NCBI GenBank assembly: GCA_050123235.1
Contig: JASFHL010000004.1
Coordinates: forward strand, 40,558-104,557
Source of the DNA: Candidatus Woesebacteria bacterium
GTDB lineage: Bacteria > Patescibacteriota > Microgenomatia > UBA1400 > PJMF01
Length of the DNA: 64,000 nucleotides
Direction: 5' to 3'
The notes under the pieces: generated by a model
Told to the model about the DNA's origin: nothing
What the model saw: only the letters and a program-made list of their open reading frames with translations
The model's database searches: none
Part shown: positions 1,481 to 44,344 of the stretch, piece by piece
Layout of the letters: each line of letters starts with the position of its first letter
How positions within the stretch are numbered: the stretch's first letter is position 1
Made by a program: the position numbers and the translations under genes

Positions 1481-2680
1481 ATGAAAGCAAATAAAAAAAC
1501 AATTATCATCCCCTTCCAGATGCCTTGGGATTGGTCAGCGGATTATCAAAAGCAAACTTGTTTTGTCTTAGCGAAAAAACATCAGGTAATTGCATTCATG
1601 TATCTTGATGCTGTTTTTTTTCTAAAAAAATTTTTTCAGAAAGAAAAAAAATATCCTCAGCTTCCAAACATCAACTTTTATCAACCCTCATATTTTTTAC
1701 CCTTTCGCCGCCTTGCTCTCATAAACAAAATTAATCAAATTATCAATCTCAAAATTATTGCCTGGAAATACAATCAGGCTCAAAACCTGCTCCACTCATG
1801 GCTCAAAAATATTTTTAGCTTTGAGCAAAAACGAAAAAACGGAAAAGAAAAAAACTTGATTCTCTGGATTTTTGACCCTTCATTTTACTTTTATCCAAAA
1901 ACTCTCAAAGCTACTTCTATCTATGACTGTGTGGACTATCAATGGCGCATCAATGAAGCTGAAAAAAAACAAGTTCAAGCAATGGAAAAAAAATTAATTG
2001 ACAATGTTGACTATTTTCTTGTTAATTCCAAAGCCCTGCAAAAAATCCATCAAAAACAACGAGTAGCTGACTTACTAGTACCACAGGGTTTTCGTTCTGA
2101 TGATTTTCAAAAAGCAAAAGCCGCTAAATCGCTCCCAAAGAACAAACCATTAATAGGCTTTGTAGGAGCCTTAGGCTATCGCCTAGATTATCCGCTACTT
2201 TTTTCTCTCATTGAGAACAACCCCCAGTGGAACTTTGTACTTTGGGGGCCAAAACAAATTGAAAAAAATCTCAAAGCAGATGAGACAGCCAAAAACTTAA
2301 AAAAATTACTTCAGTATGAAAATGTAATCTCTGGCGAAAATAAAAACAGAAAAAAAATTCCTAGTATTATCAAACAATTTGACGTTTGTATGATTCCTTA
2401 CAATCCAAATTATGATTTCAATCGCTACTGCTATCCGATGAAGTTATTTGAATACTTTTACTTAGGCAAGCCAGTAATCTCTACAGAAATTGAAGAACTT
2501 AAATATTTTCCTAAATATGTGAAAATTAGCAATCAAGCTGCTGAATGGGAAAAGCATATTTGTCAGCTACTAAAAAAACCTTGGCAAAAAAAATATCAAC
2601 AGGAACAAAAACAGCTAGCAATAGAAAACAGTTGGGAGAAAAAGGTTGAGATGATTTTAAAATTAATTGCTCGCAGATAA
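1481..2680 (+). CDS. glycosyltransferase, GT1/GT4-like (C-terminal E-x7-E type motif 'PMKLFEYFYLGKPVIS')
   Basis: ORF track protein; C-terminal Rossmann-type GT-B motifs; genomic context. Confidence 0.55.
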   Translation: MKANKKTIIIPFQMPWDWSADYQKQTCFVLAKKHQVIAFMYLDAVFFLKKFFQKEKKYPQLPNINFYQPSYFLPFRRLALINKINQIINLKIIAWKYNQAQNLLHSWLKNIFSFEQKRKNGKEKNLILWIFDPSFYFYPKTLKATSIYDCVDYQWRINEAEKKQVQAMEKKLIDNVDYFLVNSKALQKIHQKQRVADLLVPQGFRSDDFQKAKAAKSLPKNKPLIGFVGALGYRLDYPLLFSLIENNPQWNFVLWGPKQIEKNLKADETAKNLKKLLQYENVISGENKNRKKIPSIIKQFDVCMIPYNPNYDFNRYCYPMKLFEYFYLGKPVISTEIEELKYFPKYVKISNQAAEWEKHICQLLKKPWQKKYQQEQKQLAIENSWEKKVEMILKLIARR

Positions 2681-2734
2681 GCACTGTATAATTAAGCCAG
2701 AAAAAACTATTAAAGCCTGTTAAAATCAATTTTC

Positions 2735-3712
2735 ATGAACTCAAAAATATTTATCGTTATCCCTACCATCCGCAATCTTGATTTTTTGAAAAAATGGAAG
2801 CAGCAATTCCAAAATGTCTCTATTATTATCTGTGAGGATCGTCCTCAAAAAACTATTAAAATTCCTAAAGTAGGAAAAAAAACTTATCATTATTCATGGC
2901 AAGAAATAGACAATGACTTAGGCAAAGATTCATGGATTGTACCCAGAAAAGTCTCTGGCATTCGTAATTATGGTTTTCTTAAAGCTTATCAAATGGGAGC
3001 TAAGATCATCATCACTATTGACGATGATTGTTATCCTGTTAAAGGGCACAAGTTGGTGGATCTGCACTCTCAAAATCTCCAACTTAAAGCTCCAGCAAAA
3101 TGGACCAATACTTACCCAGATGCCCGCCATCTCTATACCCGTGGCATGCCCTACCTAAATAGAGATGAACAGCCAGTGATGCTCAGTCATGGCTTATGGA
3201 CTCGTGTTTTAGATCATGATGGAGCTACTCATTTACAAAACTTAAAATTCAGAGCTAAATTTGCTGAACACTTCTTACAAATTATTCCCAGTGGGGCTTA
3301 TTTCCCAATGTGTTCTATGAATCTAGCTTTTAGAAGAGAAATAACAGCCTTGATGTATTTTCCCTTGATGGCTGAGGATAAAGAAGGTAAACAATGGGGA
3401 TATAATCGCTTTGATGATATTTGGGCAGGCATTTTTGCCAAAAAAATCATGGATCATTTAGGCTATGCTGTTGTCAATGGAGCGCCTTTTGTTAAACATA
3501 AAAAAGCATCTGATCCTTTTAAAAATCTGCAAAAAGAAGCCAAAGGTATTGAAACGAATGAGAAATTATGGAGAGCAGTAGATGAAGTAAAATTGACTAA
3601 AAAAACTACAGCAAGCTGTTATATTGAGCTGGCAAAAAAAACAAAATTCCCTAAGGAAAGATATTTTGAAAAACTAAGAGAGGCAATGCTGATTTGGGGA
3701 GAAATCTTATAA
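2735..3712 (+). CDS. reversibly glycosylated polypeptide / UDP-L-arabinopyranose mutase homolog (GT75 family)
   Basis: Near-diagnostic motif series shared with plant RGP/UAM: 'IVIPTIRNLDFL', 'DDDCY', 'FPMCSMNLAF', 'FDDIWAG', 'HKKASDPFKNLQKEAKGI' (recalled from plant RGP1, which has IVIPTIRNLDFL, DDDCF, FPMCGMNLAF, YDDMWAG, HSKASNPFVNLKKEYKGI). Confidence 0.75.
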   Translation: MNSKIFIVIPTIRNLDFLKKWKQQFQNVSIIICEDRPQKTIKIPKVGKKTYHYSWQEIDNDLGKDSWIVPRKVSGIRNYGFLKAYQMGAKIIITIDDDCYPVKGHKLVDLHSQNLQLKAPAKWTNTYPDARHLYTRGMPYLNRDEQPVMLSHGLWTRVLDHDGATHLQNLKFRAKFAEHFLQIIPSGAYFPMCSMNLAFRREITALMYFPLMAEDKEGKQWGYNRFDDIWAGIFAKKIMDHLGYAVVNGAPFVKHKKASDPFKNLQKEAKGIETNEKLWRAVDEVKLTKKTTASCYIELAKKTKFPKERYFEKLREAMLIWGEIL

Positions 3713-4933
3713 ATATTTTGTCAAAGATTTCAAAAAAGCTTTCTGGCTGTAACTCTTCTTTAATAAAGCACAATTTTTTTTAATCAATTGTTTTTTCTTA
3801 TTAGTGAGCATGGTATACCATTTGATTTTTTTAGCTAATGACTTAATTGATAAGCTATTAACAATCAAATCATCATTTACTCTTCCTAACAATTCAGGGG
3901 TTGCACCAGATCTAAAACCTAATACAGGAGTATTCAAAATCAAAGATTCTAGAGTAGTAAGTCCCAAGGTTTCATATTGAGCTGAAGGAAGAATTGTTAA
4001 ATCAGCAAGTTTAAAATACTTTAAGACATCATCATGTTTAATAGCGCCTAAAAAGAATACATTTTTATATAAAGAATGTCTGAAATAATAATCCCACAGA
4101 GAAAAATAATATTCTATTCTATCACTTGGACCTAGAATAAAGACTTTTATGTTAATCGTATTTTTAATCTCATTAAAAAACTTGATCGCCTTTAATAATA
4201 GATGGACTCCCTTCCTCGGCTCTAATCTAGAACCAATCACAATTAAAAAATCTTTATTAGATACAGAAATATCTTTTCTAGTAATGCTTTTTAATTTATC
4301 CTCATCTATAAAAATAGGGGGATTAATTTTTTCTATATTGTGACTTGAAAGTTTGAAATAATTTATCAGTATTTGTTTAGAAAAATCACTAAAGACAAAA
4401 ATTAAATCTACCTTTTTTAAAATAATTTTTTGCAAATGAAAGAAAAACACATTAGCAAGCTTAAATCTGATTCTTGCAAGCAATTTCCATTGTCTTAAAT
4501 CTTTTTTGGAATACAGGCTTTCTCTCTCTAAAGTTAAGGCGCCATGGAAAAAAAACATTACTTTAAGTTTTTTACTAATAGAACTAAGCAAAAAACCCAA
4601 ACCTGAAGACGTTAAGTTGAGGAAAATATAATCAATTTCATGCTTTGACAGAATTTTTGTTATTAATTTCTTTGTGTTTAGAGCTATAGTAAAACATGTT
4701 TTCAAATAAGATTTGCTTGGCTTTAAATTGTAAAAATAAACTTTTTCACAGGAATTTCTAGCCTGTTTTAGTAAAGGTCGATTTAAACTACTTTTAAAAA
4801 TTCCTGTTAATAAAAAAACATTAGCTTCATGGGACAATGCCTTCAGCATATTAAGATTAACTCTAGTCCCGCCTCCTAACTCCAAAAAATCAAAAATAAT
4901 TAGTATGTTTTTTCCTTGCAATGATTTTTTCAT
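3707..4933 (-). CDS. glycosyltransferase family 4 (GT-B, retaining)
   Basis: 'EPRKGVHLLLKA...LTILPSAQYETLGLTTLESLILNTPVLG' typical GT4 C-terminal domain. Confidence 0.7.
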   Translation of the reverse strand: MKKSLQGKNILIIFDFLELGGGTRVNLNMLKALSHEANVFLLTGIFKSSLNRPLLKQARNSCEKVYFYNLKPSKSYLKTCFTIALNTKKLITKILSKHEIDYIFLNLTSSGLGFLLSSISKKLKVMFFFHGALTLERESLYSKKDLRQWKLLARIRFKLANVFFFHLQKIILKKVDLIFVFSDFSKQILINYFKLSSHNIEKINPPIFIDEDKLKSITRKDISVSNKDFLIVIGSRLEPRKGVHLLLKAIKFFNEIKNTINIKVFILGPSDRIEYYFSLWDYYFRHSLYKNVFFLGAIKHDDVLKYFKLADLTILPSAQYETLGLTTLESLILNTPVLGFRSGATPELLGRVNDDLIVNSLSIKSLAKKIKWYTMLTNKKKQLIKKNCALLKKSYSQKAFLKSLTKYL

Positions 4934-6092
4934 AAAACTCTATACTTTTTTGAGCTGTTTCTTTTAAATTATATCTAGATGAAACAGTTTGAAAAGCGGC
5001 TTCTCCTATTTTTTTACGTAACTCACTACTTGATAATAAAAGACTAATTTTATCAACTGAATCCTTGATATCGTTTTTTTTAATTAACAAACCTGTTTTT
5101 TTGTGTTCAATAATATTTGCTATACCACCCACTTTACTAGCAACTACAGCCTTCTTAAGACTCATAGCTTCAATAATAGTTAAACCAAAGGATTCATATA
5201 ATGATGGAAAAATACAGACATCAGCTAATCGGTATAGTTTTTCCAAAAGATTTCGATCGCCAACATATCCCAGAAAGTGAACCTTCAATAAATCTTCAAC
5301 AGAGAAATGCTGATGTACAAAGTTCTTAAGTCCCAAGTTATCTTCACCAACAATTATAAAATTGGTGAAAGGATGTTTTTTTAGAATATATTTGATTGAT
5401 TTTAAAAAAACAAATATCCCTTTTCTCTTTTCCAATCTACCAAGAAAGAGAACATTTAAATTTTTTTCCTCAGAGGATGCGAGAATTGAATGCTGCTGTT
5501 TTTCCTTTGGTATCTTAATACCTATAGGAAGAATTTTAATTTTTTTATTTTTTAATTTATATATCCTTTTGCAAAAGCTGGCATGTTTGATGGTACTGCT
5601 TGTTAAGACAGTATCTTTACAAGAAACAAAAATTTTTTCCATTGTTGATATTAATCTGGCTGATAAACTATCGTCTTCTTCTATTTGGTATAAGGTTTTA
5701 CTAACAGTATGCAATCTGACCACAATAGGGATATTTAAGAAACCGTTAAAAAATAAAGTAAATATCGAACCTTCAGCCTCCCAATTAGGAAACTCTATCA
5801 GTGAAATTCCTTGTTGTAAATGAATGTAGATTAAATAAAAAGCGATCTGAAAATTATGTATAAAAAATTTTAAAAATCTTTTATTTAGAAAACCAGATTT
5901 AGGAAGCCACCCAAGCGAGTAAATAAAAATATTCCCCCTTTGAAAATGACCCTTCTGTTGCGATCTGGTTAGAATTATAATTTTATTCTTTTTGCTAATT
6001 TCTTTTGCCAGATTTTCAATATAAATTCCTATACCTGAATTTTTTTTATTAGTTAAAATAGGGTAATTCTTATAAACAAAACAAATATTCAT
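4890..6092 (-). CDS. glycosyltransferase family 4
   Basis: 'LGRLEKRKGIFVFL...CIFPSLYESFGLTIIEAMSLKKAVVASKVGG' GT4 motifs; overlaps the downstream GT4 by 44 nt (operon). Confidence 0.7.
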   Translation of the reverse strand: MNICFVYKNYPILTNKKNSGIGIYIENLAKEISKKNKIIILTRSQQKGHFQRGNIFIYSLGWLPKSGFLNKRFLKFFIHNFQIAFYLIYIHLQQGISLIEFPNWEAEGSIFTLFFNGFLNIPIVVRLHTVSKTLYQIEEDDSLSARLISTMEKIFVSCKDTVLTSSTIKHASFCKRIYKLKNKKIKILPIGIKIPKEKQQHSILASSEEKNLNVLFLGRLEKRKGIFVFLKSIKYILKKHPFTNFIIVGEDNLGLKNFVHQHFSVEDLLKVHFLGYVGDRNLLEKLYRLADVCIFPSLYESFGLTIIEAMSLKKAVVASKVGGIANIIEHKKTGLLIKKNDIKDSVDKISLLLSSSELRKKIGEAAFQTVSSRYNLKETAQKSIEFYEKIIARKKHTNYF

Positions 6093-6134
6093 ATCTTGAT
6101 GCTATATAAAAAATATCATATATAATAAGACCTC

Positions 6135-7058
6135 ATGGCTAAAATCTCTGTCGTCGTCTGCACGTATAATAGGAGCCCCCAAATTAATTTCTTCCTAAAA
6201 TACTTTTTACAACAAAAATTCACAAACTATGAATTGCTTATTATAGACCAAAGTACTAATAATAAAACAAAAAAAACTATAAAAAAATATCAAAATAGAC
6301 TAACAATTATTTATCATAGACTAAAGAAAAAAGGAATATCACTAGCTCGTAATTTTGCTATCAAAAAGGCTAAAGGCGAAATCATAGCTTTTACTGATGA
6401 CGATTGTATTGCTGATAAAAATTGGTTAAAGCAGATAAATCAGTCTTTCAAAAAATATAAAAACATCAACCTTATTTTTGGACAAACCTTACCTTTTCGG
6501 CCAGAAAAAAATAAAGGTTTAATCTGTCCTAGTATATTTACAAAAAAAACTATAAAAATTATCCAGCAACCTTGTGTTCATTATAAAAATATTGGCTTTG
6601 GTAACAATATGGCCTTCAGAAAAAAAATTTTTAATCAGATAGGAGTTTTTAAAACATGGTTAGGAATTGGAAGTATTGGTAAATCCGCAGATGATGCAGA
6701 GCTTGCTATCCGAGCATTAATTAAAGGCAACAAAATTTTGTACAAGCCAGATATTAAAATTTACCACAACCGTTGGCTAACAATAAAACAATATAAAAAT
6801 TTAGAACTGACTTATAACTGCGGAGAAATGGCATGCTATGGATACTTTGCTTTTCAAAAATACAATTTTGCTAATAAATTAGTCAAAGACAATTTGATGC
6901 ATTTTTTAAGAAACTGCCAACAAACTGTTATTTCAGTATTCAAATTTAAAAAAAATAGCTTTGTTAATTTCAGGGATCTGACAAAAGAATTTATATTTAA
7001 ATTAAAAGGTATAATAATAGCTTTTTATTTTTATCAATTTGATCCTTTAGTGAGATGA
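6135..7058 (+). CDS. glycosyltransferase family 2
   Basis: 'ISVVVCTYNR...' N-terminal GT-A fold, DxD-like 'FTDDDCIADKNWL'. Confidence 0.7.
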   Translation: MAKISVVVCTYNRSPQINFFLKYFLQQKFTNYELLIIDQSTNNKTKKTIKKYQNRLTIIYHRLKKKGISLARNFAIKKAKGEIIAFTDDDCIADKNWLKQINQSFKKYKNINLIFGQTLPFRPEKNKGLICPSIFTKKTIKIIQQPCVHYKNIGFGNNMAFRKKIFNQIGVFKTWLGIGSIGKSADDAELAIRALIKGNKILYKPDIKIYHNRWLTIKQYKNLELTYNCGEMACYGYFAFQKYNFANKLVKDNLMHFLRNCQQTVISVFKFKKNSFVNFRDLTKEFIFKLKGIIIAFYFYQFDPLVR

Positions 7059-7108
7059 AAAAATTAACAAAATTTATTCAATTAAGGAATCTAGATATAT
7101 CCTTCAAA

Positions 7109-7834
7109 CTATTTTAAATAATAACTCTTCAAAATATCTTTCTTACCATCTCTCTTCACCTTCCCCTTTTCCAACCACAAAATCCGTTCACAATTCTTTT
7201 TTAAAAACTCCAACCAGTGACTGACGATCACAATTGTCTTTTTCTTCTCAAAAAACTCATCGATTTTTTCTTCTGTTTTTATTCTGAATCTTTCATCACC
7301 TACAGCTACATTTTCATCTAAGACTAGAATATCAGGATCAGAATGCACTGCCACTGCAAATCCCAACCTCAAAGTCATGCCCGCAGAATAAGTATATAGC
7401 GGAGCATCGATAAACTGACCAATGTCTGCGAACTCAACAATTTTTTTAAACTTCTGTTTAATTTCTTTTTTGCTCATCCCTATTACCAGGCCATTCAAAA
7501 AAATATTTTCCTCACCTGTTAAATCAGGATGAAAGCCAGCTGATAAATCTATGAGTGATACGATTTTACCATTGGTTTTAACTTTACCTCTGCTTGGGGT
7601 AGTAATGCCAGTAATAATTTTTAGTAATGTAGTTTTACCAGAGCCATTTGCTCCAATGATACCAACTTTCTCTCCTTGATAAATTTTTAGATCAATTTTA
7701 TTTAGAGCTTTAAATTTTTCTTTACGACGACGACGGATAATGTTTTCAGCAAAGGTGGGTTTCTCATGGTGAAGAGTATAAATTTTAGTAATTTTTTGAA
7801 GTGAAACTGCCAATTTTCTTTTTTTCATGCACAT
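7109..7834 (-). CDS. ABC transporter ATP-binding protein, polysaccharide/teichoic-acid export type (Wzt/TagH/KpsT-like)
   Basis: Walker A 'GANGSGKTT', signature 'YSAGMTLRLGF', Walker B 'ILVLDE'; paired with ABC-2 permease. Confidence 0.8.
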   Translation of the reverse strand: MCMKKRKLAVSLQKITKIYTLHHEKPTFAENIIRRRRKEKFKALNKIDLKIYQGEKVGIIGANGSGKTTLLKIITGITTPSRGKVKTNGKIVSLIDLSAGFHPDLTGEENIFLNGLVIGMSKKEIKQKFKKIVEFADIGQFIDAPLYTYSAGMTLRLGFAVAVHSDPDILVLDENVAVGDERFRIKTEEKIDEFFEKKKTIVIVSHWLEFLKKNCERILWLEKGKVKRDGKKDILKSYYLK

Positions 7835-7876
7835 TGGATGGTAAATCAGGAGAGATAATCTGACAAGACGAGAACT

Positions 7877-8656
7877 TTACAACCAATCATCAAAATTAGG
7901 ACTTTCTCTGCGAAAAACAAAAATTGCTAACATCGCTAAAATTAGCGTACTCAACAAGCTGATCATTAAATAAAAAGTCTGCGGGGCAGGCAAAGCTAGA
8001 ATTGAAAAACGGCTAGCCTCGATTAAGGCTGTCATTGGATTAAGGTAAAACAAGAAGTGTAATGATTTTGGAATTAAATCAAGAGTATAAACCACTGGAG
8101 TGGCATAAAACCACAGCGGCATGATTGCTTTGACTACAAAATTAACATCCCGGAATCGAACATTTAAACTAGAGAAAAAAAGCGACAAAGCACTAGTTAA
8201 AACAATTAGCCAAATTAAAATTAGAGGCAAGAAAATTAATCGCGAAAAATTCATTTTTCCTAAAATTAAGACTACTATTAATAATAGTACAAGAGAAATT
8301 AAAAGATGAAATAAATTGGAAAGAACTATTGATAAAGTAATTGCTTCCCGAGGCAGCTTAGCTTTTTGAATTAAAGTTCTTTCAAAAACATAAATTGGGG
8401 TGCTTTTCATCACTGTCATCGAGAAAAAGTTCCAGGGCAGTAGGCCAACAAATAAAAATAAAAAGTAATTATCAATTTTGACTGGTATAAAAAATTGAAA
8501 CACAAAACCAATTACTAACATTTGCAAAAGTGGATTCAAAATTACCCATAAAAAGCCTAAAATTGCATGCTTGTAACGAGCTTTGATTTCTTTTTCAGTG
8601 AGGCTTAATAAAAACTCTAACCAATAATGAAAGTATCTTTTTGAAATTATTTTCAC
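7877..8656 (-). CDS. ABC-2 type transporter permease (Wzm/TagG-like)
   Basis: ~260 aa, 6 predicted TM helices, immediately upstream of Wzt-like ATPase. Confidence 0.7.
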   Translation of the reverse strand: MKIISKRYFHYWLEFLLSLTEKEIKARYKHAILGFLWVILNPLLQMLVIGFVFQFFIPVKIDNYFLFLFVGLLPWNFFSMTVMKSTPIYVFERTLIQKAKLPREAITLSIVLSNLFHLLISLVLLLIVVLILGKMNFSRLIFLPLILIWLIVLTSALSLFFSSLNVRFRDVNFVVKAIMPLWFYATPVVYTLDLIPKSLHFLFYLNPMTALIEASRFSILALPAPQTFYLMISLLSTLILAMLAIFVFRRESPNFDDWL

Positions 8657-8731: not shown

Positions 8732-10870
8732 ATGATTAATGTTGTTGGTACTTCACCAATCCCGACCAGTTCTCAAACCCCTGCTGGACAAGCTGCCCCA
8801 CAGACTACTCCTCAAGCTGCCGCTCCAACACCTCCTCCGGCTGCAGCTCAAAAAGCTGGTGGTGCTGGAGTAACTCCTCCCCCTAGTGCTAAACCACCAG
8901 GTAATAAATCTGCTATGAGTCCTCAACTGCAAAATTTATTTAAACAGAAAAAATTATCACCCAAGATGATTATAGCTATTTTGCTATTGGTGTTATTAGT
9001 GGTGGGAGTAATCGTAGGTTTTATTCTCAGTCAACAAAAACAAGAAATTAGGCAGAAAGCTGCAGTAGGTGATTATTGCTTAACTGATGCACAATGCAAC
9101 GTTGCTGGTGGGGAATACTGTGCTCCAAATCATTACTGTGCTATCAGACCTACTGGTGGTGGCTGTCCTAATAATGACCACACTGCCACTAGGTGGATAA
9201 GATTTACCTGCCCAGATGGTTGTACCATAACCCATGAGCCAGGTGATCCCCCAGAGGGCCGATATCGCTGTTATTCAAATCGAGAAGACTTCACAACTCC
9301 AGTTTCCTTAAATGGCGAATGTGGACAAGTAGATGTTTTGGATGAGAATGGAGATTTCTGTGGCTGGACTGAATATAATTGCGATGGCCCATGTGCTGGA
9401 GATGGTGAAGGAGGCACTCCTGTTCCTGGTGCTGCTACTAGTACGCCTGCTCCAACTGGTGTAGGTGGAGTTGAACCAACTCCAATCAGCTATAGTTGTA
9501 ACAGTAGCTGTACCAATACTAGCCAATGCCAAGGAGTCAATCCAAACTATCGCTGCTACACTAGAGCTGAGGGTGAACCAAACTGGAATTTGGCTGAATC
9601 ATGGAATAGCTTCAGTATCTCAGAGATGCCTTCAGCTTGTACCTCTGTTACTGCTTCTGGCGCTTACTATACACCAACTGAATTTAGACAATCAGTTTGG
9701 TGCAATGGAGGTACTGTTTACTTCCGCACTGTTCCTTTAGGTAGCAACGGTGAACCTAATTATGGGAGTGCTGGTAGCTGGAATACTAGCAGTATTAGTG
9801 CTGAGGGTCTACCATCATCCTGTACTAGTATTACTGCCTATGATGCTTATTCTACTCCAACTGAACTTAGACAAGCTTTATGGTGTGGTACTACTGTTTA
9901 TTTCCGCACTGTACCATTAAATAGTAGTGGTGAGCCTAATTTTAGTAATGTTGGCAGCTGGAATAGTAGTAGCATTAGTGCTGAAGGTCTACCATCATCC
10001 TGTACTACTATAACTGGCTATGGAGCTTACATGACCGACTCCAACCTAAGACAATCCCTTTTATGTAACGGTAATGTGAGTTATTACCATGATGTACCAT
10101 TGAACAGTAGCGGAGAGCCTAATTTTAGTAATGTTGGCAGCTGGAATAGCATGAGTTTATCTGAATTTGGATTAGCATCATCTTGTACTACTATAAGTGC
10201 TTATGCAACAAGTAATAATGGAAATACACTTAGACAGGTATTCTGGTGCAATGGCACTAATGGTTATTTCCGTGCCGTAGGTATTGGCAGTCGCTGCAGG
10301 TTGGAAAGCAATCCTAGCTCCATGACTTGTTCTGTGGCCACAGCAGCAGCCCCAACTGCTACTCCAGAACCAGGTGTCTGCGGTTCCTCAGGTTGTAGTC
10401 TTGACAATCCATGTAGCGGTCAACTGGTTTGTATTACAGCTAATGATGGCAACAACTACTGTTCTGAAGCTGATCAAAGCGTCCGAGATGCCTGTGCTAT
10501 CAATCCAAATACAACGACTTGCTGTACAGCACCAACCAGTGCTGTTGCTACTGCTACTCCAACTGATACTGTGGTCAATACCACTATCGATTGTAATGAT
10601 GCTTGTGTGCAGAATTCAGATTGCAGTAATGTCAGTCACATCTGCTGGAATGGTCAATGTCGCTTGTCAGAAAATCCTTCTGACGAACTATGCAGATTAC
10701 CTGGCGGGGGTACCACTACTACTGTCACTTACGAAACCATCCAACAGAGACAAATTCAACCAACCCTACCTTCTCAACTACCAAGCTCTGGTCCTGCTGA
10801 TTGGTTAAAATACCTCAAGGCTGGACTAGGTGTCCTAGGCTTTGGGCTACTACTCTTCTTATTACTCTAA
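8732..10870 (+). CDS. large Cys-rich surface protein: Pro/Ala-rich N-terminal tail, signal-anchor TM with 'GFILSQQKQEIRQKA' motif, 4 x ~60-aa Cys-containing repeats, Cys-rich C-terminal module, C-terminal 'LPSSGPADWLKYLK'+TM tail
   Basis: ORF track protein; internal repeats visible at DNA and protein level (~9572-10293); many N-x-S/T sequons; codon composition raises local GC. Confidence 0.7.
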   Translation: MINVVGTSPIPTSSQTPAGQAAPQTTPQAAAPTPPPAAAQKAGGAGVTPPPSAKPPGNKSAMSPQLQNLFKQKKLSPKMIIAILLLVLLVVGVIVGFILSQQKQEIRQKAAVGDYCLTDAQCNVAGGEYCAPNHYCAIRPTGGGCPNNDHTATRWIRFTCPDGCTITHEPGDPPEGRYRCYSNREDFTTPVSLNGECGQVDVLDENGDFCGWTEYNCDGPCAGDGEGGTPVPGAATSTPAPTGVGGVEPTPISYSCNSSCTNTSQCQGVNPNYRCYTRAEGEPNWNLAESWNSFSISEMPSACTSVTASGAYYTPTEFRQSVWCNGGTVYFRTVPLGSNGEPNYGSAGSWNTSSISAEGLPSSCTSITAYDAYSTPTELRQALWCGTTVYFRTVPLNSSGEPNFSNVGSWNSSSISAEGLPSSCTTITGYGAYMTDSNLRQSLLCNGNVSYYHDVPLNSSGEPNFSNVGSWNSMSLSEFGLASSCTTISAYATSNNGNTLRQVFWCNGTNGYFRAVGIGSRCRLESNPSSMTCSVATAAAPTATPEPGVCGSSGCSLDNPCSGQLVCITANDGNNYCSEADQSVRDACAINPNTTTCCTAPTSAVATATPTDTVVNTTIDCNDACVQNSDCSNVSHICWNGQCRLSENPSDELCRLPGGGTTTTVTYETIQQRQIQPTLPSQLPSSGPADWLKYLKAGLGVLGFGLLLFLLL
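9572..10293 (+). repeat. intragenic tandem repeats: 4 x ~177-183 bp (~60 aa) units inside the 8732-10870 CDS
   Basis: Units start GEPN(W/Y/F)...SWN.SS.S..GL.SSCT.I.AY...LRQ..WC; units 3 and 4 share ~40 identical nt at their 5' ends. Confidence 0.75.
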
Positions 10871-10940
10871 TCTTAGAATAAAATCAAAGAAGGAAAAATA
10901 TAGATTGCTAGATATATATTCTGAAGAAGTGAATAAGCTA

Positions 10941-11098
10941 AAATTTACTATAAATAAATATTGCAGTGTTAAAGCGAGGTCTGGCTAAGCTTAATCTAGC
11001 ACTACATTTACTACCGAGCTTTACTGAGTGAGCTTTATATCTTAAAAATTAATAAGAGGTTGTCGCGAACGACTGCAATATTTATTTATACTAAATTT
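10941..11098 (+). repeat. MITE-like palindromic repeat, full copy A (27-bp TIR, conserved core)
   Basis: TIR aaatttactataaataaatattgcagt / actgcaatatttatttatactaaattt; core gttaaagcgaggtctggctaag...ctaccgagctttactgagtgagc...gcgaacgactg. Confidence 0.8.
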
Positions 11099-11219
11099 GG
11101 ACTGTGTTTTTCGAGCTCAGGATATTTTTTCTTCTTTGACTTTGCTCTAGAAATTGTATTATGATGATTATTAGGCAATAATTTTTGTAAAATTTTAATT
11201 TAGTGAGCAACAAAGAAAT

Positions 11220-12773
11220 ATGACTGATTCCATGAATCCTATGAATCAACAAAGCTCTAATTCAACAGCTAGCAGTAAGCCTAATTCTCAAAACCTCTTC
11301 CAAGGGATAACTAAGAAGATGGCTCAGAATACTAATGTTCAACGCGCAGCATTAAGCCAATTGGGAGCAAGTTCACTAGATAAAGCAAATCCCAACCCAT
11401 CCAGTACAAACAGCCAAAATCTATTAGACTCAATGCCTAGTTCAATAGAGGCAAAACCAAGCCAAGCTCCTATTAAAACAGCATTAAAACAACCATTGCC
11501 TAACACTCCAGCAGATCAAGGTGCAACATTAAAGCAAGCAAGCCCTCCTCCAACTCAAGAAAGTCTTACTGCTCCCAAAACAAAGTCATCAAAAAAAATA
11601 TTTTTAAGTATTGCAGTACTTTTATTTCTTGTATTTGGAGCTGGCGCTGGCTTTATTCTAAGTCAACAGTCACAAGACATTAACCGTCAAGCTACCACTC
11701 CAGAAACTGCCAAACCAACCCTAGCTGTGCTACCTGCCCCTGTTGCCACGCTTTCTGAAAAAGATCAAATTGCTAAAAAGGTACTTACTTGTTTAGACGG
11801 GATGAAGGATAACTCAGGACTTTATCCATATAAACAAAATTGTGACGAAAAAGGTAATTGTGAATCTTTACCAGATAATAATTCTGGTCCACGCCCTATT
11901 TATGCTAGATTTCATTACTACCAAAAAACTAAGGATCCTCAAGAACTTGCTATTTTTAAAAAAGATTTATCAATTAATAATACAGCTGTTTCAGGCATTC
12001 AGAATAACTTCTACAACTGTAAATTAATCGCTGAGATTCAAGCTAGCATTGATGAAATGTGGAACAACAATTTCTTGATGAAGCAAGAAAGAAATCAAGC
12101 TAGAAATATTTGCCTTCTTAGTAAAAACAACCAGCAATTAGAGCAAATCGCAGATCAAAACTTGGACAGTGAATTGGCTAAAAAACCTGATTTTGATCAA
12201 GTATATGACGATCTATCAAGTACAAAGTCAAGTAGTCAAGAAATTTTGCTCAAAACTGACCTCGCTAGTGCTAGCTATTACAGTTCTGAATATGCAGGTC
12301 GTTATTCATTACTCACCCAGAATAGAGAGACTGAATTAAAAAGAGCGATATTCTTTTACAATCAAGCCTTGCTTATGCTCTTTCAAGAAAAACAAACAGC
12401 TAATTTTAAAGATATTTGTACTTTTGGAGAAAGTTCGCTTGATCTCTACAGAGTTACTCAGGATGAGGATTATCTTAAGCTAGCCAAATATCTTTGGAGC
12501 TGGGGTGCTGATCAAACTAGCCATGACTTTTCTACCAAAACAATCTGTGCCTATTTCACTAATAGCCTTTACCAAGAAACACAAGAAGAATCTTATCAAA
12601 CAGCCAGAAGTAATTTAATTAATGATTTGATTGAAAATAATCTTGATAAAACTGGACAAATGAGTTTTGTGACTGGAGATGGCTGTTTTAATTCTGATAA
12701 AGATGCAGCTGGAAAGGTTAGTAAATCAAGTATAGATAATAGCTTATTAGTGAAAGTATTGCTAGCTGAGTAA
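11220..12773 (+). CDS. membrane-anchored secreted protein: Ser/Asn/Pro-rich N-terminal region, TM with 'GFILSQQSQDINRQA' motif, ~370-aa extracytoplasmic domain; no C-terminal anchor motif
   Basis: ORF track protein; shares N-terminal signal-anchor motif with flanking genes. Confidence 0.6.
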   Translation: MTDSMNPMNQQSSNSTASSKPNSQNLFQGITKKMAQNTNVQRAALSQLGASSLDKANPNPSSTNSQNLLDSMPSSIEAKPSQAPIKTALKQPLPNTPADQGATLKQASPPPTQESLTAPKTKSSKKIFLSIAVLLFLVFGAGAGFILSQQSQDINRQATTPETAKPTLAVLPAPVATLSEKDQIAKKVLTCLDGMKDNSGLYPYKQNCDEKGNCESLPDNNSGPRPIYARFHYYQKTKDPQELAIFKKDLSINNTAVSGIQNNFYNCKLIAEIQASIDEMWNNNFLMKQERNQARNICLLSKNNQQLEQIADQNLDSELAKKPDFDQVYDDLSSTKSSSQEILLKTDLASASYYSSEYAGRYSLLTQNRETELKRAIFFYNQALLMLFQEKQTANFKDICTFGESSLDLYRVTQDEDYLKLAKYLWSWGADQTSHDFSTKTICAYFTNSLYQETQEESYQTARSNLINDLIENNLDKTGQMSFVTGDGCFNSDKDAAGKVSKSSIDNSLLVKVLLAE

Positions 12774-12781
12774 AACAAGTA

Positions 12782-13906
12782 ATGAACATTCAAAAAAGCA
12801 GAGCCACCATTAAACGAAGCAAAAAAACTAATCTCAAATTGGTAATAAGTTTATTGTTTATTTTAATGTCAGTGACTGGTTTTTTGGCTGGACTTTATTT
12901 GACTCAGCAAAGACAAGATATTAGACAACAGGCTTATCCTGGGCAAGAATGTGACTATACTTCCCAATGTGATGGCGAAAACGAAGTTTGCAATCCTAAT
13001 ACTCATCGTTGCGAAGGTGGAGTTATCCCAAGTAGCTGTGATTGTACTGCTGCACATACTTGCACCAGTAGCAACCCTAGCTGTGGTAGCTGTGTGCGAT
13101 CGTACTGCTATATTTCACCAGTCACTGGCAACTGTGAACAATGGTGTGAGCCAGTTTGCGGTGATGTCAGTGAAGCATGTGACTTTTATTGTCTAGAATG
13201 TACCAATGCTTCTGATACTTGCGGCCCTCAGCCAACACCTGGCGGCCCGACTCCAACTCCATTCCAACCACCTACAATTACGCCTTATCACACACCGGCT
13301 GTTAGTCCTACACCGACTCCAGCTCAACCAACATCAACTCCGCCCCCAATCTCGAGCCCAACTCCTACAGTGACTGGCGCCCCTAGTTCCACTCCCACAC
13401 CGACTGCCACTTTAAGCCCAACTCCAACCGTGACTGCTAGTCCAACGCCAACTAGTCCTCCTTGGGCCTCACCAACTCCGACTAGCCCACCATGGGCATC
13501 ACCTACCCCCACCAGTCCTCCTTGGGCTTCACCAACTCCGACCTCTCCACCTTGGGTACCAACTAATACTCCAGTGCCTTGGTCAAGTCCGACCCCGATC
13601 GCTTGGACAGTACCAACTAATACTCCTGCTCCATGGGTAGTAGTACCAACTATGATTGATTGTAACTCTATCTGCTACTCTGACTCTGAATGTGCTCAAA
13701 TCGGCTTGATTTGCTATCAAGGCCGCTGCCGCTTGGCTGCTAATCCAGAAGATCAATATTGCCGTCTCCCAGCTAGTGAAGTGATGGTAGAACAACCAGT
13801 TACTCCTGAAGCATTACCAGTTGCTGGCCCAGAAGATTGGCTTAAATACCTGAAGATTGGCCTCAGTGTGCTTGGCATTGGTGCTTTACTCTTCTTGTTA
13901 ATTTAA
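12782..13906 (+). CDS. Cys-rich / Pro-Thr-rich surface protein: TM with 'GLYLTQQRQDIRQQA', Cys-rich domain, PT linker with 4x 'PTPTSPPWAS', C-terminal Cys module 'IDCNSICYSDSECAQ..CRL..NPED..CRLP', 'LPVAGPEDWLKYLK'+TM tail
   Basis: ORF track protein; C-terminal 90 aa paralogous to C-terminus of the 8732-10870 product. Confidence 0.7.
   Translation: MNIQKSRATIKRSKKTNLKLVISLLFILMSVTGFLAGLYLTQQRQDIRQQAYPGQECDYTSQCDGENEVCNPNTHRCEGGVIPSSCDCTAAHTCTSSNPSCGSCVRSYCYISPVTGNCEQWCEPVCGDVSEACDFYCLECTNASDTCGPQPTPGGPTPTPFQPPTITPYHTPAVSPTPTPAQPTSTPPPISSPTPTVTGAPSSTPTPTATLSPTPTVTASPTPTSPPWASPTPTSPPWASPTPTSPPWASPTPTSPPWVPTNTPVPWSSPTPIAWTVPTNTPAPWVVVPTMIDCNSICYSDSECAQIGLICYQGRCRLAANPEDQYCRLPASEVMVEQPVTPEALPVAGPEDWLKYLKIGLSVLGIGALLFLLI
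13441..13560 (+). repeat. intragenic tandem repeats: 4 x 30 bp (PTPTSPPWAS) inside the 12782-13906 CDS
   Basis: ccaac(g/t)cc(a/g)ac(t/c)agtcctccttgggc(c/t)tca units. Confidence 0.75.
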
Positions 13907-14230: not shown

Positions 14231-14304
14231 GCGCGCGTAGCTCAATTGGTTAGAGCACCAAGCTTATACCTTGGTGGTTCCAGGTTCGAGTCCTGGCGCG
14301 CGCA
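14231..14304 (+). tRNA. tRNA-Ile, anticodon UAU (decodes AUA); no encoded CCA
   Basis: Manual cloverleaf fold: acceptor GCGCGCG/CGCGCGC, D-stem GCTC/GAGC, anticodon stem CCAAG/CTTGG with loop cTTATAc, T-arm CCAGG-TTCGAGT-CCTGG, discriminator A. Confidence 0.8.
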
Positions 14305-14362
14305 CAAAAACACTTAAAAAGATATTTCTTGACTTTTGTAATAGAATATATGTGTATTTATT

Positions 14363-15107: not shown

Positions 15108-16271
15108 TTGCTTTCAAAAAATGATCGTAAATCAAAAACAAATGTTTTTCAGCAAAATCTCAGCAAAAGTAGTGTAAAATATATCTTTTTGATTAAAGAA
15201 TTTATGAAAAAACTTAAACGAGCAGCTAAACGAATCAAAAACTTGCCCAAAAAAATTATTAAAACCATTAAAAAAAGGTGGAAGCTTTTGCTGGTCTTAA
15301 TTTTGATCATCTCAGCCCTTGCTTTTTTCTTATACAAAAGACAAGAAGCTAATAAAATTATCCTTACTTTTGAAAAACCTCAACGTGAAGATATCACTGA
15401 AACTCTTGAGGTTTCTGGCATTATTGATGCCAAAGAAAAGGCCACCCTTAGATTTATTGCTGGCGGCAAAGTCACTTACCTCGGAGTTCAAGAAGGTGAT
15501 TATGTGAAAAAATGGCAAACCATTGTCATCATTGACCAGCGTGATTTACAAAAAAAATTACAACAGGATTTGAATGATTATATGAAAGAACGTTGGGATT
15601 GGGATCAAGTGCTGGATGATACCAAAGATCGTTGGATTCCCAAATCAGAAGAAAGAGAAAAAGATAAATCTCAATGGGATCTTGATAATACTGTTCTAGA
15701 TGTAGAAATCAGAGATATCGCTATTTCCAACACTGTCATGTCTGCTCCTTTCTCTGGCATTATTGTTAAATCACCCACCAGCACTGCCAATGTACAACTA
15801 CTGGCGACTGACACTTTTGAACTAATTAACCCAGAGACTTTAGTTTTTAGAGCTCAAGTTGATGAGGCTGATATTGCAGCAGTTAGCTTAGATCAAATTG
15901 CCAAACTCACATTTGATGCTTATCCAGATGAAAATATAACTACTCAAGTAAATTATATTGCCTACAAAAGTAGTCAAGCTAGTAGTGGCACTGTCTTTGA
16001 AATTGAATTTCCTATTCTGGAAGAGAATGCTGCTACTAAATATCGTTTGGGCATGAATGGTGATGCTGAAATTAAGTTGAGAAGCAAAGAAAATGTTCTA
16101 ACAATCCCTTTGATAGCTACTAGAGAAAGAAATGGTGAAACTTTTGTTGATCTCAAAACCGGAGAAGAAACTTATGAAGAGAGAAAAATAGAGATTGGCC
16201 TAGAGACTGAAGATAAGGTTGAAGTAATTGATGGCTTAACAGAAAATGATGAGATTTTAATTCCAGAATAA
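15108..16271 (+). CDS. efflux/export periplasmic adaptor (HlyD/MFP family; MacA-like)
   Basis: N-terminal TM, biotinyl-lipoyl-like and beta-barrel segments ('ATLRFIAGGKVTYLGVQEGDYVKKWQTIVIID'); upstream of MacB-like ABC pair. Confidence 0.7.
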   Translation: MLSKNDRKSKTNVFQQNLSKSSVKYIFLIKEFMKKLKRAAKRIKNLPKKIIKTIKKRWKLLLVLILIISALAFFLYKRQEANKIILTFEKPQREDITETLEVSGIIDAKEKATLRFIAGGKVTYLGVQEGDYVKKWQTIVIIDQRDLQKKLQQDLNDYMKERWDWDQVLDDTKDRWIPKSEEREKDKSQWDLDNTVLDVEIRDIAISNTVMSAPFSGIIVKSPTSTANVQLLATDTFELINPETLVFRAQVDEADIAAVSLDQIAKLTFDAYPDENITTQVNYIAYKSSQASSGTVFEIEFPILEENAATKYRLGMNGDAEIKLRSKENVLTIPLIATRERNGETFVDLKTGEETYEERKIEIGLETEDKVEVIDGLTENDEILIPE

Positions 16272-16292
16272 AAAATAGTTAAAATTGCCAAA

Positions 16293-17093
16293 GTGAAATC
16301 ATCCAAAAAAAATAAAACACCAGTGTTACAACTTGTTAAAGTTTCTAAAACTTATCAAGTTGGCTCTCAAACCATCCGAGCGCTCAGAAAAGTTGATTTT
16401 ACTGTTAACAAAGGTGAATTCATCTCAATCATGGGTCCTTCTGGTAGTGGTAAATCTACCTTTTTGCAAGTAGCGAGCATCTTAGCTGAGGCAAGTAGTG
16501 GACAAATCTTCATCCAAGGCAAAGATGTCACTGAATATGATGAAGTAGAAAGAGCTAAACTCAGAAATAAAGAAATTGGTTTTGTGTTTCAAAAATTTAA
16601 TCTGCTATCCAAAACTTCGGCCTTGGATAATGTGGCTCTACCATTACTCTACGCTGGAATCAAAGAAAGTGAGAGAAAAAAAAGGGCTGCAGCAGTCTTA
16701 GAAAAACTAGGATTAGCTGATCGACTAAATAATACTCCTGCTCAGCTTTCTGGTGGTCAACAACAAAGAGTGGCTATTGCTAGAGCCTTAGTCAATGAAC
16801 CTTCGATAATCTTTGCAGACGAACCAACTGGTAACCTTGATTCCAAAAGTGGTGAAGAAGTGGAAAAAATTCTCAAAAAACTGAGCCGAGAGGGTAAAAC
16901 TATTATCATGGTTACTCATGAAGCTTATATCGCCGAGCTAGCCCAAAGACAAGTAGTTATTAAAGATGGAGAGATTATTTCAGACACCCTAAATGGCTCT
17001 CAAACAGAATACACTAGCGAAGCTGTTGAGGAAGAAGATTATCCCAAAAAAAAAATTAATTACACTAAAAGGAAACGTAAAAAGAAAAAATGA
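16293..17093 (+). CDS. ABC transporter ATP-binding protein, MacB/LolD/FtsE-like
   Basis: Walker A 'GPSGSGKST', '[15 protein letters not shown]', Walker B '[12 protein letters not shown]'. Confidence 0.85.
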
Positions 17094-18301
17094 ACCTGAC
17101 TAATACTTTTATCATCGCTATCAAAGCCATTCTTACCAACAAAGTGAGAAGCTTTCTCACCATGTTAGGCATTATCATTGGTGTTAGCTCAGTGGTCATG
17201 CTCACTTCCATTGGCACTGGTCTAGAAGCCTACATCACTGAACAATTTGAAAGCTTAGGTTCAAATAACATTCTTGTTTTTCCTGGCGATATTTTTGGAG
17301 AAGGTGGCGGTTTTAGTCGTGAAAGACAAGCAAGTGCTTTGCTCAATAACAAACTTAAATTATCAGATGTCAATGAAATTAAAAAGTTAAGAGAATTTGT
17401 AGAAACAGCTGTGCCTTTTAATACACATACGGACAAGGTGTCTTTCCAAACTGAAACCAAAACAGTGAGTTTGCTAGCCACCACTCATGAATATGATGAA
17501 GTATTTAATACTAAAATGGAAAAAGGAAGATTCTTTGACAAAGTGGAAGAACAAACTGGCAAACGAGTAGCTATTTTAGGTTTTTCTACTGCAGATGAAC
17601 TTTTTGGACAAGTTGATCCAATTGGTAAAAAAGTAAAAGTTGGCAATCATGTCTTTAAAGTTATTGGAGTGGCTGAAAAAAAAGGCGGTGGTTTTGGCGG
17701 GCCTTCTTTTGATACCTATGTTTATTTACCTTTAAAAACTTTTTCCAAAATTTATGACAAAAATGATATTGTAGAAATAGTAGCTAAAGCTAAGGACAAA
17801 GATAGTATTCCAGAAACCATTGAAGCGATTGAAAAAACAATGCTCAAAAGACTGAAAGATGATGAATTTAGTGTGCTTGATCAGTCTGAAATCTTGGAAA
17901 TGATCAATGAGATTTTAGGAATTTTAACTATTGGCTTGGGCGGCATTGCTGCAATTTCACTTCTAGTAGGCGGAATTGGCATCATGAATATCATGCTGGT
18001 TTCTGTGACTGAGCGAACTAATGAGATTGGCTTAAGAAAAGCATTAGGGGCGACACCCAATCAAATTTTATTACAATTTCTAATTGAAGCTGCGCTTTTG
18101 TCTATCTTGGGGGGCTTGATTGGTTTGGGCTTGGCCTTCTTGGGAGCACTGGTTATCCAAGCTTACTTTCCTGCTAAAGTAACCATGGGGGCGGTGATAT
18201 TGGCTTTTACTGTCTCAACTGCAGTAGGTTTAATTTTTGGGGCTGCCCCAGCTAGAAGAGCTTCAAAGTTGTCGCCAATTGAAGCGTTGAGATATGAGTA
18301 G
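17090..18301 (+). CDS. ABC transporter permease, FtsX/MacB family
   Basis: N-terminal TM, large periplasmic domain, C-terminal 3-TM FtsX-like block; 4-nt overlap with ATPase gene. Confidence 0.8.
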   Translation: MNLTNTFIIAIKAILTNKVRSFLTMLGIIIGVSSVVMLTSIGTGLEAYITEQFESLGSNNILVFPGDIFGEGGGFSRERQASALLNNKLKLSDVNEIKKLREFVETAVPFNTHTDKVSFQTETKTVSLLATTHEYDEVFNTKMEKGRFFDKVEEQTGKRVAILGFSTADELFGQVDPIGKKVKVGNHVFKVIGVAEKKGGGFGGPSFDTYVYLPLKTFSKIYDKNDIVEIVAKAKDKDSIPETIEAIEKTMLKRLKDDEFSVLDQSEILEMINEILGILTIGLGGIAAISLLVGGIGIMNIMLVSVTERTNEIGLRKALGATPNQILLQFLIEAALLSILGGLIGLGLAFLGALVIQAYFPAKVTMGAVILAFTVSTAVGLIFGAAPARRASKLSPIEALRYE

Positions 18302-18638
18302 GCTTATTTAAAAATACTTTTTTAAGCTCAACTTTCAGCTTTAAATGATCTTTTAGATGATGGATTTTTATTATCCACTTTCTCTTTTCCCCTTGCTTTG
18401 CTTCACATTCACTCACTCTGACAGTCACTTTAAGTGTTTTAGCTGTTTTTGTACTTGCATCTACAATTTCATCTACAAGGATTTCATTTACCCGTACTTT
18501 TACTAGCTCTCCACTTTTAGTTCTAATGCGTATTATTTCTCCTTCTATTAAAGTTGAGCCATCTGGTAAACCTAGTGGTTTCTCTTCAGGACCTTTTTCA
18601 GTAAGTACATAGCCTATTGCAACTTCTGATTCTGGCAT
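18252..18638 (-). CDS. hypothetical protein (128 aa); convergent with and overlapping the 3' end of the FtsX gene by 50 nt
   Basis: ORF track only; non-junk composition. Confidence 0.35.
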   Translation of the reverse strand: MPESEVAIGYVLTEKGPEEKPLGLPDGSTLIEGEIIRIRTKSGELVKVRVNEILVDEIVDASTKTAKTLKVTVRVSECEAKQGEKRKWIIKIHHLKDHLKLKVELKKVFLNKPTHISTLQLATTLKLF

Positions 18639-18715
18639 TGTTATCCTTTCTTAGATTCAAAAATCCAAATTATTAATTCGTAATTAATAAAAATTTATAC
18701 TAAAATATAAACAGG

Positions 18716-19051
18716 ATGACGCTAATCAAAAAACTACTCTTCTTGGTACTGATTCTAACCATCGCTGGTGCTGGAGTTTACTGGGCAGCTAATCAAGGTT
18801 ATCTTAAAGATACTCCTTTGGCTAATATCAGTGGCCAAGATCTGACAGAGTTTGCCCAAGACACATCAGAACAAACTAAAATTTTAGGTTCTAGAGCTAG
18901 TGAAACTGGCCAACACATTCAAACTGTATTGGGGGAAAGCATCCAGGCTAGTGATGAAAATCAGGCAATTCATGAAAAAGCTTTTGAATATGGACGTTAT
19001 TTATATTGCAAAGCAGTAGTAGAGGAATATGAGCAGGAGAATAAAAAATAA
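18716..19051 (+). CDS. hypothetical small protein with N-terminal TM helix
   Basis: ORF track. Confidence 0.4.
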   Translation: MTLIKKLLFLVLILTIAGAGVYWAANQGYLKDTPLANISGQDLTEFAQDTSEQTKILGSRASETGQHIQTVLGESIQASDENQAIHEKAFEYGRYLYCKAVVEEYEQENKK

Positions 19052-43781: not shown

Positions 43782-43884
43782 AGTTTTGATACCCTACAGA
43801 TTTAAGTTTCGAAATTAAAAAAGAGCCTTGCCCCCTGAAAAATAAATTTTTGTTATAATAGCTTGATTGACAAACTGACTGAAG

Positions 43885-44340: not shown

Positions 44341-44344
44341 AAAC

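Follow-up and report, generated by a model that had tools for sequence, protein, structure and literature searches.

The C-terminal sorting signals that sortases recognise are of the LPXTG type (TIGR01167, PF00746), with a pentapeptide near the C-terminus followed by a hydrophobic helix, in proteins that also have an N-terminal export signal. A basic Arg/Lys tail after the hydrophobic segment is defining in canonical sortase signals, and this stop-transfer tail is considered essential in Firmicutes. The YSIRK-G/S signal peptides of staphylococci and streptococci (TIGR01168) add a conserved motif in the export signal of a subset of surface proteins, often together with a C-terminal sortase signal. 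The PEP-CTERM/exosortase, PGF-CTERM/archaeosortase and GlyGly-CTERM/rhombosortase systems use tripartite signals, with a short motif, a helix at the extreme C-terminus and a basic cluster at the end, and have polysaccharide genes nearby. Here we describe three consecutive open reading frames (ORFs), P1, P2 and P3, which lie on the same strand within positions 8732-13906 of a 64,000 nt stretch of Candidatus Woesebacteria DNA (the window). All three encode a common N-terminal leader, and P1 and P3 also encode a common C-terminal tail. Our favoured reading, to which we give a probability of about 0.6, is that they are cell-envelope proteins of a Woesebacteria/Pacebacteria-type bacterium (Microgenomates, Candidate Phyla Radiation (CPR)) with lineage-specific sorting modules, and that the tail of P1 and P3 is a divergent LPXTG signal served by an unlinked sortase.

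CPR/Patescibacteria are epibionts that rely on surface structures, and annotation leaves most of their envelope proteins as hypothetical. This includes P1, which is a 100% match to NCBI MGD9129366.1 from a Candidatus Woesebacteria metagenome-assembled genome (MAG), a 'hypothetical protein' in the naming of the Prokaryotic Genome Annotation Pipeline. Neither P1, P2 nor P3 gave a significant match to Pfam-A or NCBIfam, and no description of the leader or the tail was found in the published literature searched. What is new here is the lineage-specific leader and tail, unmodelled in Pfam and NCBIfam; the mechanism is most likely that already known for sortases.

P1 (8732..10870, 712 aa; this and all other features of the three genes are on the + strand) consists of an N-terminal leader, a Cys-rich ectodomain with four repeats of ~60 aa, a six-Cys module and an LPXTG-like tail. 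P3 (12782..13906, 374 aa) has a short N-terminus, a leader, a Cys-rich segment, a Pro/Thr linker, a six-Cys module and an LPXTG-like tail; the Cys totals are 40 for P1 and 23 for P3. The six-Cys module is IDCNDACVQNSDCSNVSHICWNGQCRLSENPSDELCRLP in P1 (10586..10702) and IDCNSICYSDSECAQIGLICYQGRCRLAANPEDQYCRLP in P3 (13655..13771). In P1, the pentapeptide LPSSG (10778..10792) is followed by the 25-residue tail PADWLKYLKAGLGVLGFGLLLFLLL (10793..10867), the last 16 residues of which are uncharged; in P3, LPVAG (13814-13828) is followed by the 25-residue tail PEDWLKYLKIGLSVLGIGALLFLLI, the two together spanning 13814..13903. The last 95 residues of P1 and the last 84 of P3 are 54% identical, a likeness far beyond chance. 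Invariant between them are the six Cys of the CN..C.....C......C....CRL........C module, the LP..GP.DWLKYLK segment and the Gly pattern of the terminal helix. In a six-frame regex scan of the window, the DWLKYLK tail was found solely at the ends of P1 and P3. The Cys-rich module and C-terminus that an earlier note on this DNA had described as common to the two proteins were thus borne out.

The tail belongs to a large family. When 1.84 billion cluster representatives were searched exhaustively with HMMER, using a profile of the P1 and P3 C-termini, 371 of them matched at E<=1e-3, of which 163 reached E<=1e-10. The 371 range in length from 85 to 1504 aa and nearly all align through their last residues. 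(A word-indexed search with the same profile matched only the query protein, which says nothing about absence.) Among the top 150 matches, 129 have a recognisable pentapeptide, and in 110 of the 129 the distance from its Gly to the end of the protein is exactly 25 residues. In these 110 relatives, to which the residue counts refer, the pentapeptide has L in 99 (90%), P in 101 (92%), Q in 49 or E in 30 at the x position, T in 65, S in 36 (92% for T/S) or A in 9, and G in all 110 (100%). The sequence just ahead of it reads Q(-7) P(-6) x L(-4) P(-3) x E(-1), and the one after it P-(E/A)-D-W-x-N-W-L-K-A-G-L-x-x-L-G-x-G-A-x-L-L-L-L-L, where the chain ends. The resulting consensus is QPxLPxE-LP(Q/E)(T/S)G-PEDWxNWLK-AGLxxLGxGAxLLLLL-COOH, with invariant Gly at +11 and +18. 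A peptide of this QPxLPxE-LPx(T/S)G type is QPELPEELPQTGPEDWLNW, and the LPSSG of P1 and LPVAG of P3 are minority variants of the family pentapeptide.

The geometry of the tail is fixed. No charged residue occurs within the last 16 positions in any of the 110 relatives and the protein stops at Leu +25, whilst the sole conserved Lys, at +9, lies ahead of the hydrophobic stretch, on the outer side of the helix. Read-through of a stop codon as the reason for the missing basic end was ruled out, since the stop falls at the same +25 in 110 of the 129. In an AlphaFold2 (AF2) model built from 32 family members, which also provides the prediction for P1, the Cys module forms a small beta-hairpin domain (predicted local distance difference test score (pLDDT) ~90), followed by a disordered spacer. 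The tail forms one continuous helix from +1 to +24 that starts immediately after the Gly (pLDDT 94-96). A PDB sequence search with the tail module gave only E values of ~0.6-0.9.

These features are those of an LPXTG signal in several respects: an LPx(T/S)G pentapeptide with an invariant Gly is found near the C-terminus across the family, and a hydrophobic segment that could span the membrane, with its 16 uncharged residues, comes next. An N-terminal export signal is also present, as a Lys-rich patch and helix in P1 and P3 and as one of two leader classes, described below, in 103 of 134 tail representatives that start with Met. The tail family departs from LPXTG signals in having no positively charged end, stopping instead at LLLLL-COOH exactly 25 residues past the Gly, and in having PEDWxNWLK and a Gly-zipper-like helix after the motif, QPxLPxE before it and the six-Cys module upstream. 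The PEP-CTERM, PGF-CTERM and GlyGly-CTERM signals resemble the tail in their tripartite plan and in the polysaccharide genes nearby, but they end in a basic cluster and have other motifs, neither of which the tail family has.

The cargo of the relatives points in the same direction. A scan of 111 full-length tail representatives identified DUF11 in 20, the isopeptide-forming fimbrial domain TIGR04226 in 11, bMG10 in 10 and DUF7927 in 6; DUF11 and isopeptide-forming fimbrial domains are also a likeness to LPXTG systems, as is the host clade, which is monoderm and reported to encode sortases. Of the canonical models, TIGR01167 (LPXTG_anchor) matched 5 of the 111, weakly (best E 0.003), and PF00746 matched 1. 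No single model covers the tail family; a dedicated one would match nearly all members. PEP-CTERM, PGF-CTERM and GlyGly-CTERM were absent among the top families of the 111 relatives, and the isolated P1 and P3 tails matched nothing in Pfam-A or NCBIfam at E<=10, including the LPXTG, PEP-CTERM, PGF-CTERM and GlyGly-CTERM models. From its domains, the cargo is of the kind expected in sortase substrates, with a signal too divergent for the canonical models. The resemblance to sortase signals that the earlier note had seen in the window is much stronger in the family, where T/S reaches 92% and G 100% and the cargo is of sortase type. The note had also allowed that the tail might simply match an existing sorting-signal model whose enzyme is encoded elsewhere. 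No simple match to an existing model was obtained, but the tail is probably best seen as a divergent form of the well-described LPXTG signal, its enzyme presumably encoded elsewhere.

Several observations weigh against the assignment of the tail to a sortase. The basic Arg/Lys tail is present in none of the 110 relatives, and no curated model matches the window tails and only the 5 (TIGR01167) and 1 (PF00746) of the 111 relatives. The Thr position is Ser in P1 and Ala in P3. The leader, with its long h-region and Gln at -3, does not appear to have a canonical signal peptidase I (SPase I) site, and its removal is uncertain. Finally, no sortase was found. As the earlier note had said, the window revealed none by phmmer with S. 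aureus SrtA combined with a TLxTC/His/Arg regex, a procedure of limited sensitivity for divergent CPR sortases. None was found by the same procedure in 29 genome loci and 88 metagenome loci (117 in all). A second line of evidence was the Pfam gene tables of the matching 115,926-bp contig in Joint Genome Institute (JGI) metagenome 3300042731, which cover the window except 36.7-40.4 kb, plus ~10 kb past each end (~84 kb in all); sortase is absent from these also. A recurring 'YVITCG' ORF was rejected as a sortase, its Cys being at the N-terminus and a membrane helix being absent.

Housekeeping sortases are usually unlinked to their substrates, which fits the lack of a sortase gene nearby. The sortase family has been reported as near-ubiquitous in Microgenomates (PMC6744442), and a closed Microgenomates genome encodes a sortase (PMC7143001). 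CPR are reported to have an MdbA-like oxidoreductase and VKOR, as in the actinobacterial sortase/pilus pathway (PMC6744442), and such a disulfide-forming system fits the disulfide-rich modules of the P1 and P3 type.

The leader is shared by all three proteins and runs from a Lys-rich patch through a strongly hydrophobic helix to a polar box, Q-x-x-Q-(D/E)-I-(R/N)-x-x-A. P1 begins with the conserved start MINVVG (8732..8749), after which comes a low-complexity Pro/Ala/Thr/Gln stretch that is presumably cytoplasmic; the membrane helix, MIIAILLLVLLVVGVIVGFIL (8966..9028), has the Lys-rich patch just before it, and the box SQQKQEIRQKA (9029..9061) ends the leader. In P2 (11220..12773, 517 aa), which has a long low-complexity N-terminus, an all-helical domain after the leader and no C-terminal tail, helix (from KKIFLSIAV...) and box occupy 11592..11693, with the box SQQSQDINRQA at 11661-11693. 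In P3 they occupy 12833..12934, with the box TQQRQDIRQQA at 12902-12934. By six-frame regex scan of the window, the box is confined to P1, P2 and P3, where it always abuts the hydrophobic helix on its C-terminal side. The earlier note was right that an N-terminal helix and motif recur in three consecutive proteins; it had called the motif amphipathic, whereas the composition is polar and rich in Q, D and R. Elsewhere in the window, exported proteins start with ordinary signals and lack the box, which is thus not a universal export signal of the host. A type IV prepilin-like signal ('GFILSQQ') was considered and ruled out, as the motif comes after the helix and not before it.

Metagenome contigs were scanned with a degenerate DNA pattern for L-x-Q-x-x-Q-D-x-R-Q-Q-A. 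This identified 96 ORFs, and in 90 of these a membrane helix lies just ahead of the box. Together with the 371 tail representatives, they place both motifs clearly in relatives. The 3' end is complete in 63 of the leader ORFs, only 16 of which have the C-terminal LPXTG-like tail; P2 also lacks it, and the leader is thus a more general module than the tail. Many of the tail-less proteins with a leader of the window type (class A, below) end in a second Cys motif, ..G.Y.AQCQ(I/V)CT....C..WE... Such AQC-motif proteins were seen at loci L014, L019, L020, L026, L033, L039, L041, L043, L053, L058, L095, L096 and others. The combination of leader and AQC domain is the commonest neighbour of tail genes (14 genome loci); it is absent from the window, with P2 in its place.

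Amongst tail-bearing representatives there are two leader classes, told apart by the sequence after the helix: class A, the window type, with G(F/Y)YL(T/S)QxxQD(V/I/L)RQQA, and class B, with GVLI(S/A)(L/Q)RQR...VAPNAPES(R/K)PxA. Regex classing of the 134 Met-start representatives gave 41 in class A, 62 in class B and 31 in neither; many of the last could be degenerate variants or come from truncated gene calls, whilst ordinary signal peptides are present in a few. The helix has a conserved GxGxG. Roughly one in four leader proteins, in both classes, starts with M-[ILV]-N-[AV] (MINA 18, MINV 9 and MVNA 6 of 150), and a low-complexity stretch of 50-190 residues then leads up to the Lys patch. 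Conservation of this start implies that the long N-terminal extension is genuinely translated. The earlier note's view of N- and C-terminal elements conserved on otherwise divergent cargo and unmodelled in Pfam-A and NCBIfam holds, but the strict pairing of the two in one dedicated pathway does not: the tail is found in 16 of 63 leader proteins, P2 has none, and at least two leader classes occur on tail proteins.

The box marks a sharp module boundary. In paralogs on a single contig, the leaders are identical (100%, L035, 2144-5044 and 6553-9948) or near-identical (L052, 4421-4912 and 7853-9292) up to RQQAS and the sequences are unrelated right after, which suggests shuffling of leader cassettes, or gene conversion, up to the box. 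The residue that follows the box in 103 non-redundant leaders is Ser in 58, Ala in 20, Tyr in 9 and Asp in 7. As an SPase I site, the leader would have Ala at -1 (always, in a set whose box columns are partly fixed by the collecting regex), Gln at -3, an h-region of ~22 residues, a c-region of 10-11 and an n-region of up to 50-190 residues. A canonical Sec/SPase I signal peptide has a short n-region, an h-region of 7-15 residues and small residues at -3 and -1. The Ala at -1 would suit this, but the Gln at -3 and the region lengths would be atypical. Isolated leaders matched only generic membrane-anchor regions such as FliL in Pfam-A and NCBIfam. A word-indexed search of 5.8 billion sequences with two leader profiles gave nothing at E<=10, but the motif is too short for significance and this says nothing about absence. 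The closest analogue is the YSIRK motif, which is likewise a conserved element in the export signal of a subset of surface proteins. However, YSIRK lies where the n- and h-regions meet in a cleaved signal peptide of ~40 residues. The window-type box instead comes after a ~22-residue helix, and the leader can be extended on its cytoplasmic side by 50-190 residues; the two show no likeness in sequence, and no model matched.

The following sequence of events would account for these modules. The leader, composed in order of an often MIN[AV] start, a low-complexity cytoplasmic stretch of 10-190 residues, a Lys-rich patch, a ~22-residue GxGxG helix and the box Q-x-x-Q-D-(I/V/L)-R-Q-Q-A, would insert the protein through Sec in an N-in/C-out orientation, leaving the Cys-rich cargo outside. 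The box, as the exact end of the leader module, may be a processing site. In P1 and P3 the C-terminus would consist of a disulfide-rich six-Cys stalk module and then the divergent LPXTG-type signal, with the 25-residue helix after the Gly holding the precursor in the membrane until cleavage. An unlinked housekeeping sortase would then cut between T/S/A and G, and the ectodomain would be transferred to the cell wall or, in relatives with pilin-like cargo, to another subunit. We infer the sortase cleavage, the acceptor and the fate of the leader from the motifs, their conservation and fixed geometry across the family, the cargo types and the clade, all of which were observed.

Permanent double anchoring, processing by another enzyme and pilus polymerisation each have less support than the sortase reading. 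The first is possible, though doubtful. The C-terminal helix would then remain uncleaved and the protein would be stapled to the membrane at both ends, perhaps with its Gly-rich helices packing together, and the LPxTG-like stretch would have been conserved for a structural or recognition role beside the membrane. The missing stop-transfer tail and the lack of a sortase nearby (window, ~84 kb of tables, 29 genome loci) would be explained. The helix is also unusually conserved for a disposable anchor (Gly +11 and +18, GLxxLGxG), suggesting specific helix-helix contacts, and the leader helix has its own conserved GxGxG. However, an LPx(T/S)G pentapeptide whose invariant Gly (100%) keeps a set distance to the C-terminus, in proteins with isopeptide and DUF11 cargo, is a specific signature of sortase substrates, and sortase is reported to be almost universal in the clade (PMC6744442).

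The lack of a basic tail, the fixed length of 25 residues and the conserved PEDWxNWLK and Gly pattern point to a signal that is recognised specifically, whether by a sortase that co-evolved with it or by a second helix, and not to a generic anchor. A tentative extension, which we consider rather improbable as a whole, is a two-part Microgenomates display code. In this code the leader would be read or processed by a dedicated factor, and the basic-tail-less LPXTG signal with its PEDWxNWLK/Gly-zipper helix would be read by a co-evolved CPR sortase or paired with the leader helix. The protein could then be attached to a non-canonical acceptor in the unusual CPR envelope, and a MacB-type ABC transporter and a 111-aa protein encoded nearby could take part. 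With the sortase reading, the tail family would define the likely substrate motif of a CPR sortase and be a natural case of a sortase-type signal that works without the basic stop-transfer tail, which bears on what a minimal sortase signal is. The recognisable leader and tail would also let annotators flag hundreds of Microgenomates surface proteins that current LPXTG models miss.

The gene neighbourhood bears on a further alternative. One genome per GTDB species was scanned with an alignment of a 6-sequence tail subfamily, which samples only the DWL[KN]YL branch. The 29 related loci obtained are from Candidatus Pacebacteria, Woesebacteria, 'Paceibacterota' and Patescibacteria MAGs, some of the automatically named ones carrying implausible labels; two weak 'Halomonas' matches were false positives, with no tail ORF there. 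Tandem sets comprise one to three tail genes and often lie beside a leader-only gene, as in P1-P2-P3. At ~25 loci (L002-L027) they lie in a conserved block of a Wzt-Wzm ABC-2 exporter (minus strand), the tail genes, a YknX-like adaptor, ABC ATPase and FtsX-MacB permease, a 111-aa membrane protein and a VirB4-like ATPase. The 111-aa protein has an invariant C-terminal motif, EKAxEYGxYxYCKQVVE, and at eight loci without the ABC trio its gene directly follows the tail gene. In the window, the counterpart of the ABC/111-aa part of the block is at 15108-19051, with the 111-aa protein at 18716-19051. When ORFs were clustered over the related genome loci, the leader and AQC-domain protein was the sole widespread neighbour with no counterpart in the window, and no candidate processing enzyme emerged.

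This conserved block from Wzt/Wzm through YknX-ABC-FtsX to the 111-aa gene, and a large glycosylation/exopolysaccharide locus with Wzy_C alongside, typical of PEP-CTERM/exosortase settings, could be taken to indicate that the tail is processed by an exosortase-, archaeosortase-, rhombosortase-like or unknown enzyme, perhaps coupled to the MacB-type transporter and the 111-aa protein. We consider this unlikely. The tails match no PEP-CTERM, PGF-CTERM or GlyGly-CTERM model at E<=10, the gene tables (~84 kb) hold no exosortase, archaeosortase, rhombosortase or rhomboid Pfam family, and the consensus is LPXTG, not PEP, PGF or GG. The PGF-CTERM or exosortase-like processing raised in the earlier note accordingly found no support. 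Furthermore, the VirB4-like protein is 75-89% identical across the loci, so inherited synteny cannot be separated from functional linkage, and the conserved block could mean close relatedness only.

More improbable still, P1 and P3 might be joined by a sortase into a pilus or fibre instead of being anchored to the wall as monomers. The RrgB-type isopeptide-forming fimbrial domain in 11 of 111 relatives and the arrangement of tail genes in tandem sets of 2-3, like pilus operons, are consistent with such polymerisation, but neither P1 nor P3 has a pilin or isopeptide domain of its own, and the pilus-specific (class C) sortase that is otherwise the rule in pilus operons is not adjacent. That the likeness of P1 and P3, clearly paralogous at both ends, merely reflects a recent duplication in one genome, without any signal function, is refuted by the retention of both elements on hundreds of otherwise unrelated proteins from many genomes, with fully divergent cargo.

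P2, with the leader but no tail, would be exported or anchored and expose its all-helical domain. Its only Pfam match was a weak one to glycoside hydrolase family GH127 (E 0.0018), PDB sequences of family GH76 matched only at E 0.7-0.9, and AF2 on the single sequence gave a domain model too poor for use (pLDDT 34). The Pro/Thr linker of P3 contains a 30-bp tandem repeat (13442-13556, 3.8 copies) that encodes PTPTSPPWAS units. The JGI gene calls split P3 into genes of 74 aa and 84 aa, and the Logan assembly gives the full 374 aa. The 350-nt spacer between P1 and P2 contains two nested long inverted repeats (10874-11149) with no Rfam family match: 10941-10967/11072-11098, of 27 nt and 96% complementary, and 10874-10901/11122-11149, of 28 nt and 86% complementary.

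The glycosylation/polysaccharide locus lies just upstream of P1 (window 1481-8656 and ~10 kb further upstream on the source contig) and contains several GT1/GT4/GT2 glycosyltransferase genes, an RGP gene, two Wzy_C (O-antigen ligase/O-oligosaccharyltransferase-like) proteins and the Wzm/Wzt ABC-2 exporter. Glycosylation could occur on the Pro/Thr-rich linkers of P1 and P3. Further along the window, an array of seven small two-helix genes (43434-46716), six of them T4SS_pilin (VirB2-like) in the JGI Pfam table, and the VirB4-like ATPase (DUF8128/DUF87/TrwB, 20118-22451) match the type IV secretion system with a pilin array that has been described in Patescibacteria (PMC12857230). Another ATPase, of DUF87/TraG type, is near dnaA on Logan contig L032. 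In most bacteria AUA is read by a lysidine-modified CAU tRNA; the only tRNA in the window is a tRNA-Ile with the anticodon UAU (14231-14305). A rnpA, rpmH, dnaN, dnaA cluster at 59724-63550 indicates that the window probably adjoins the replication origin.

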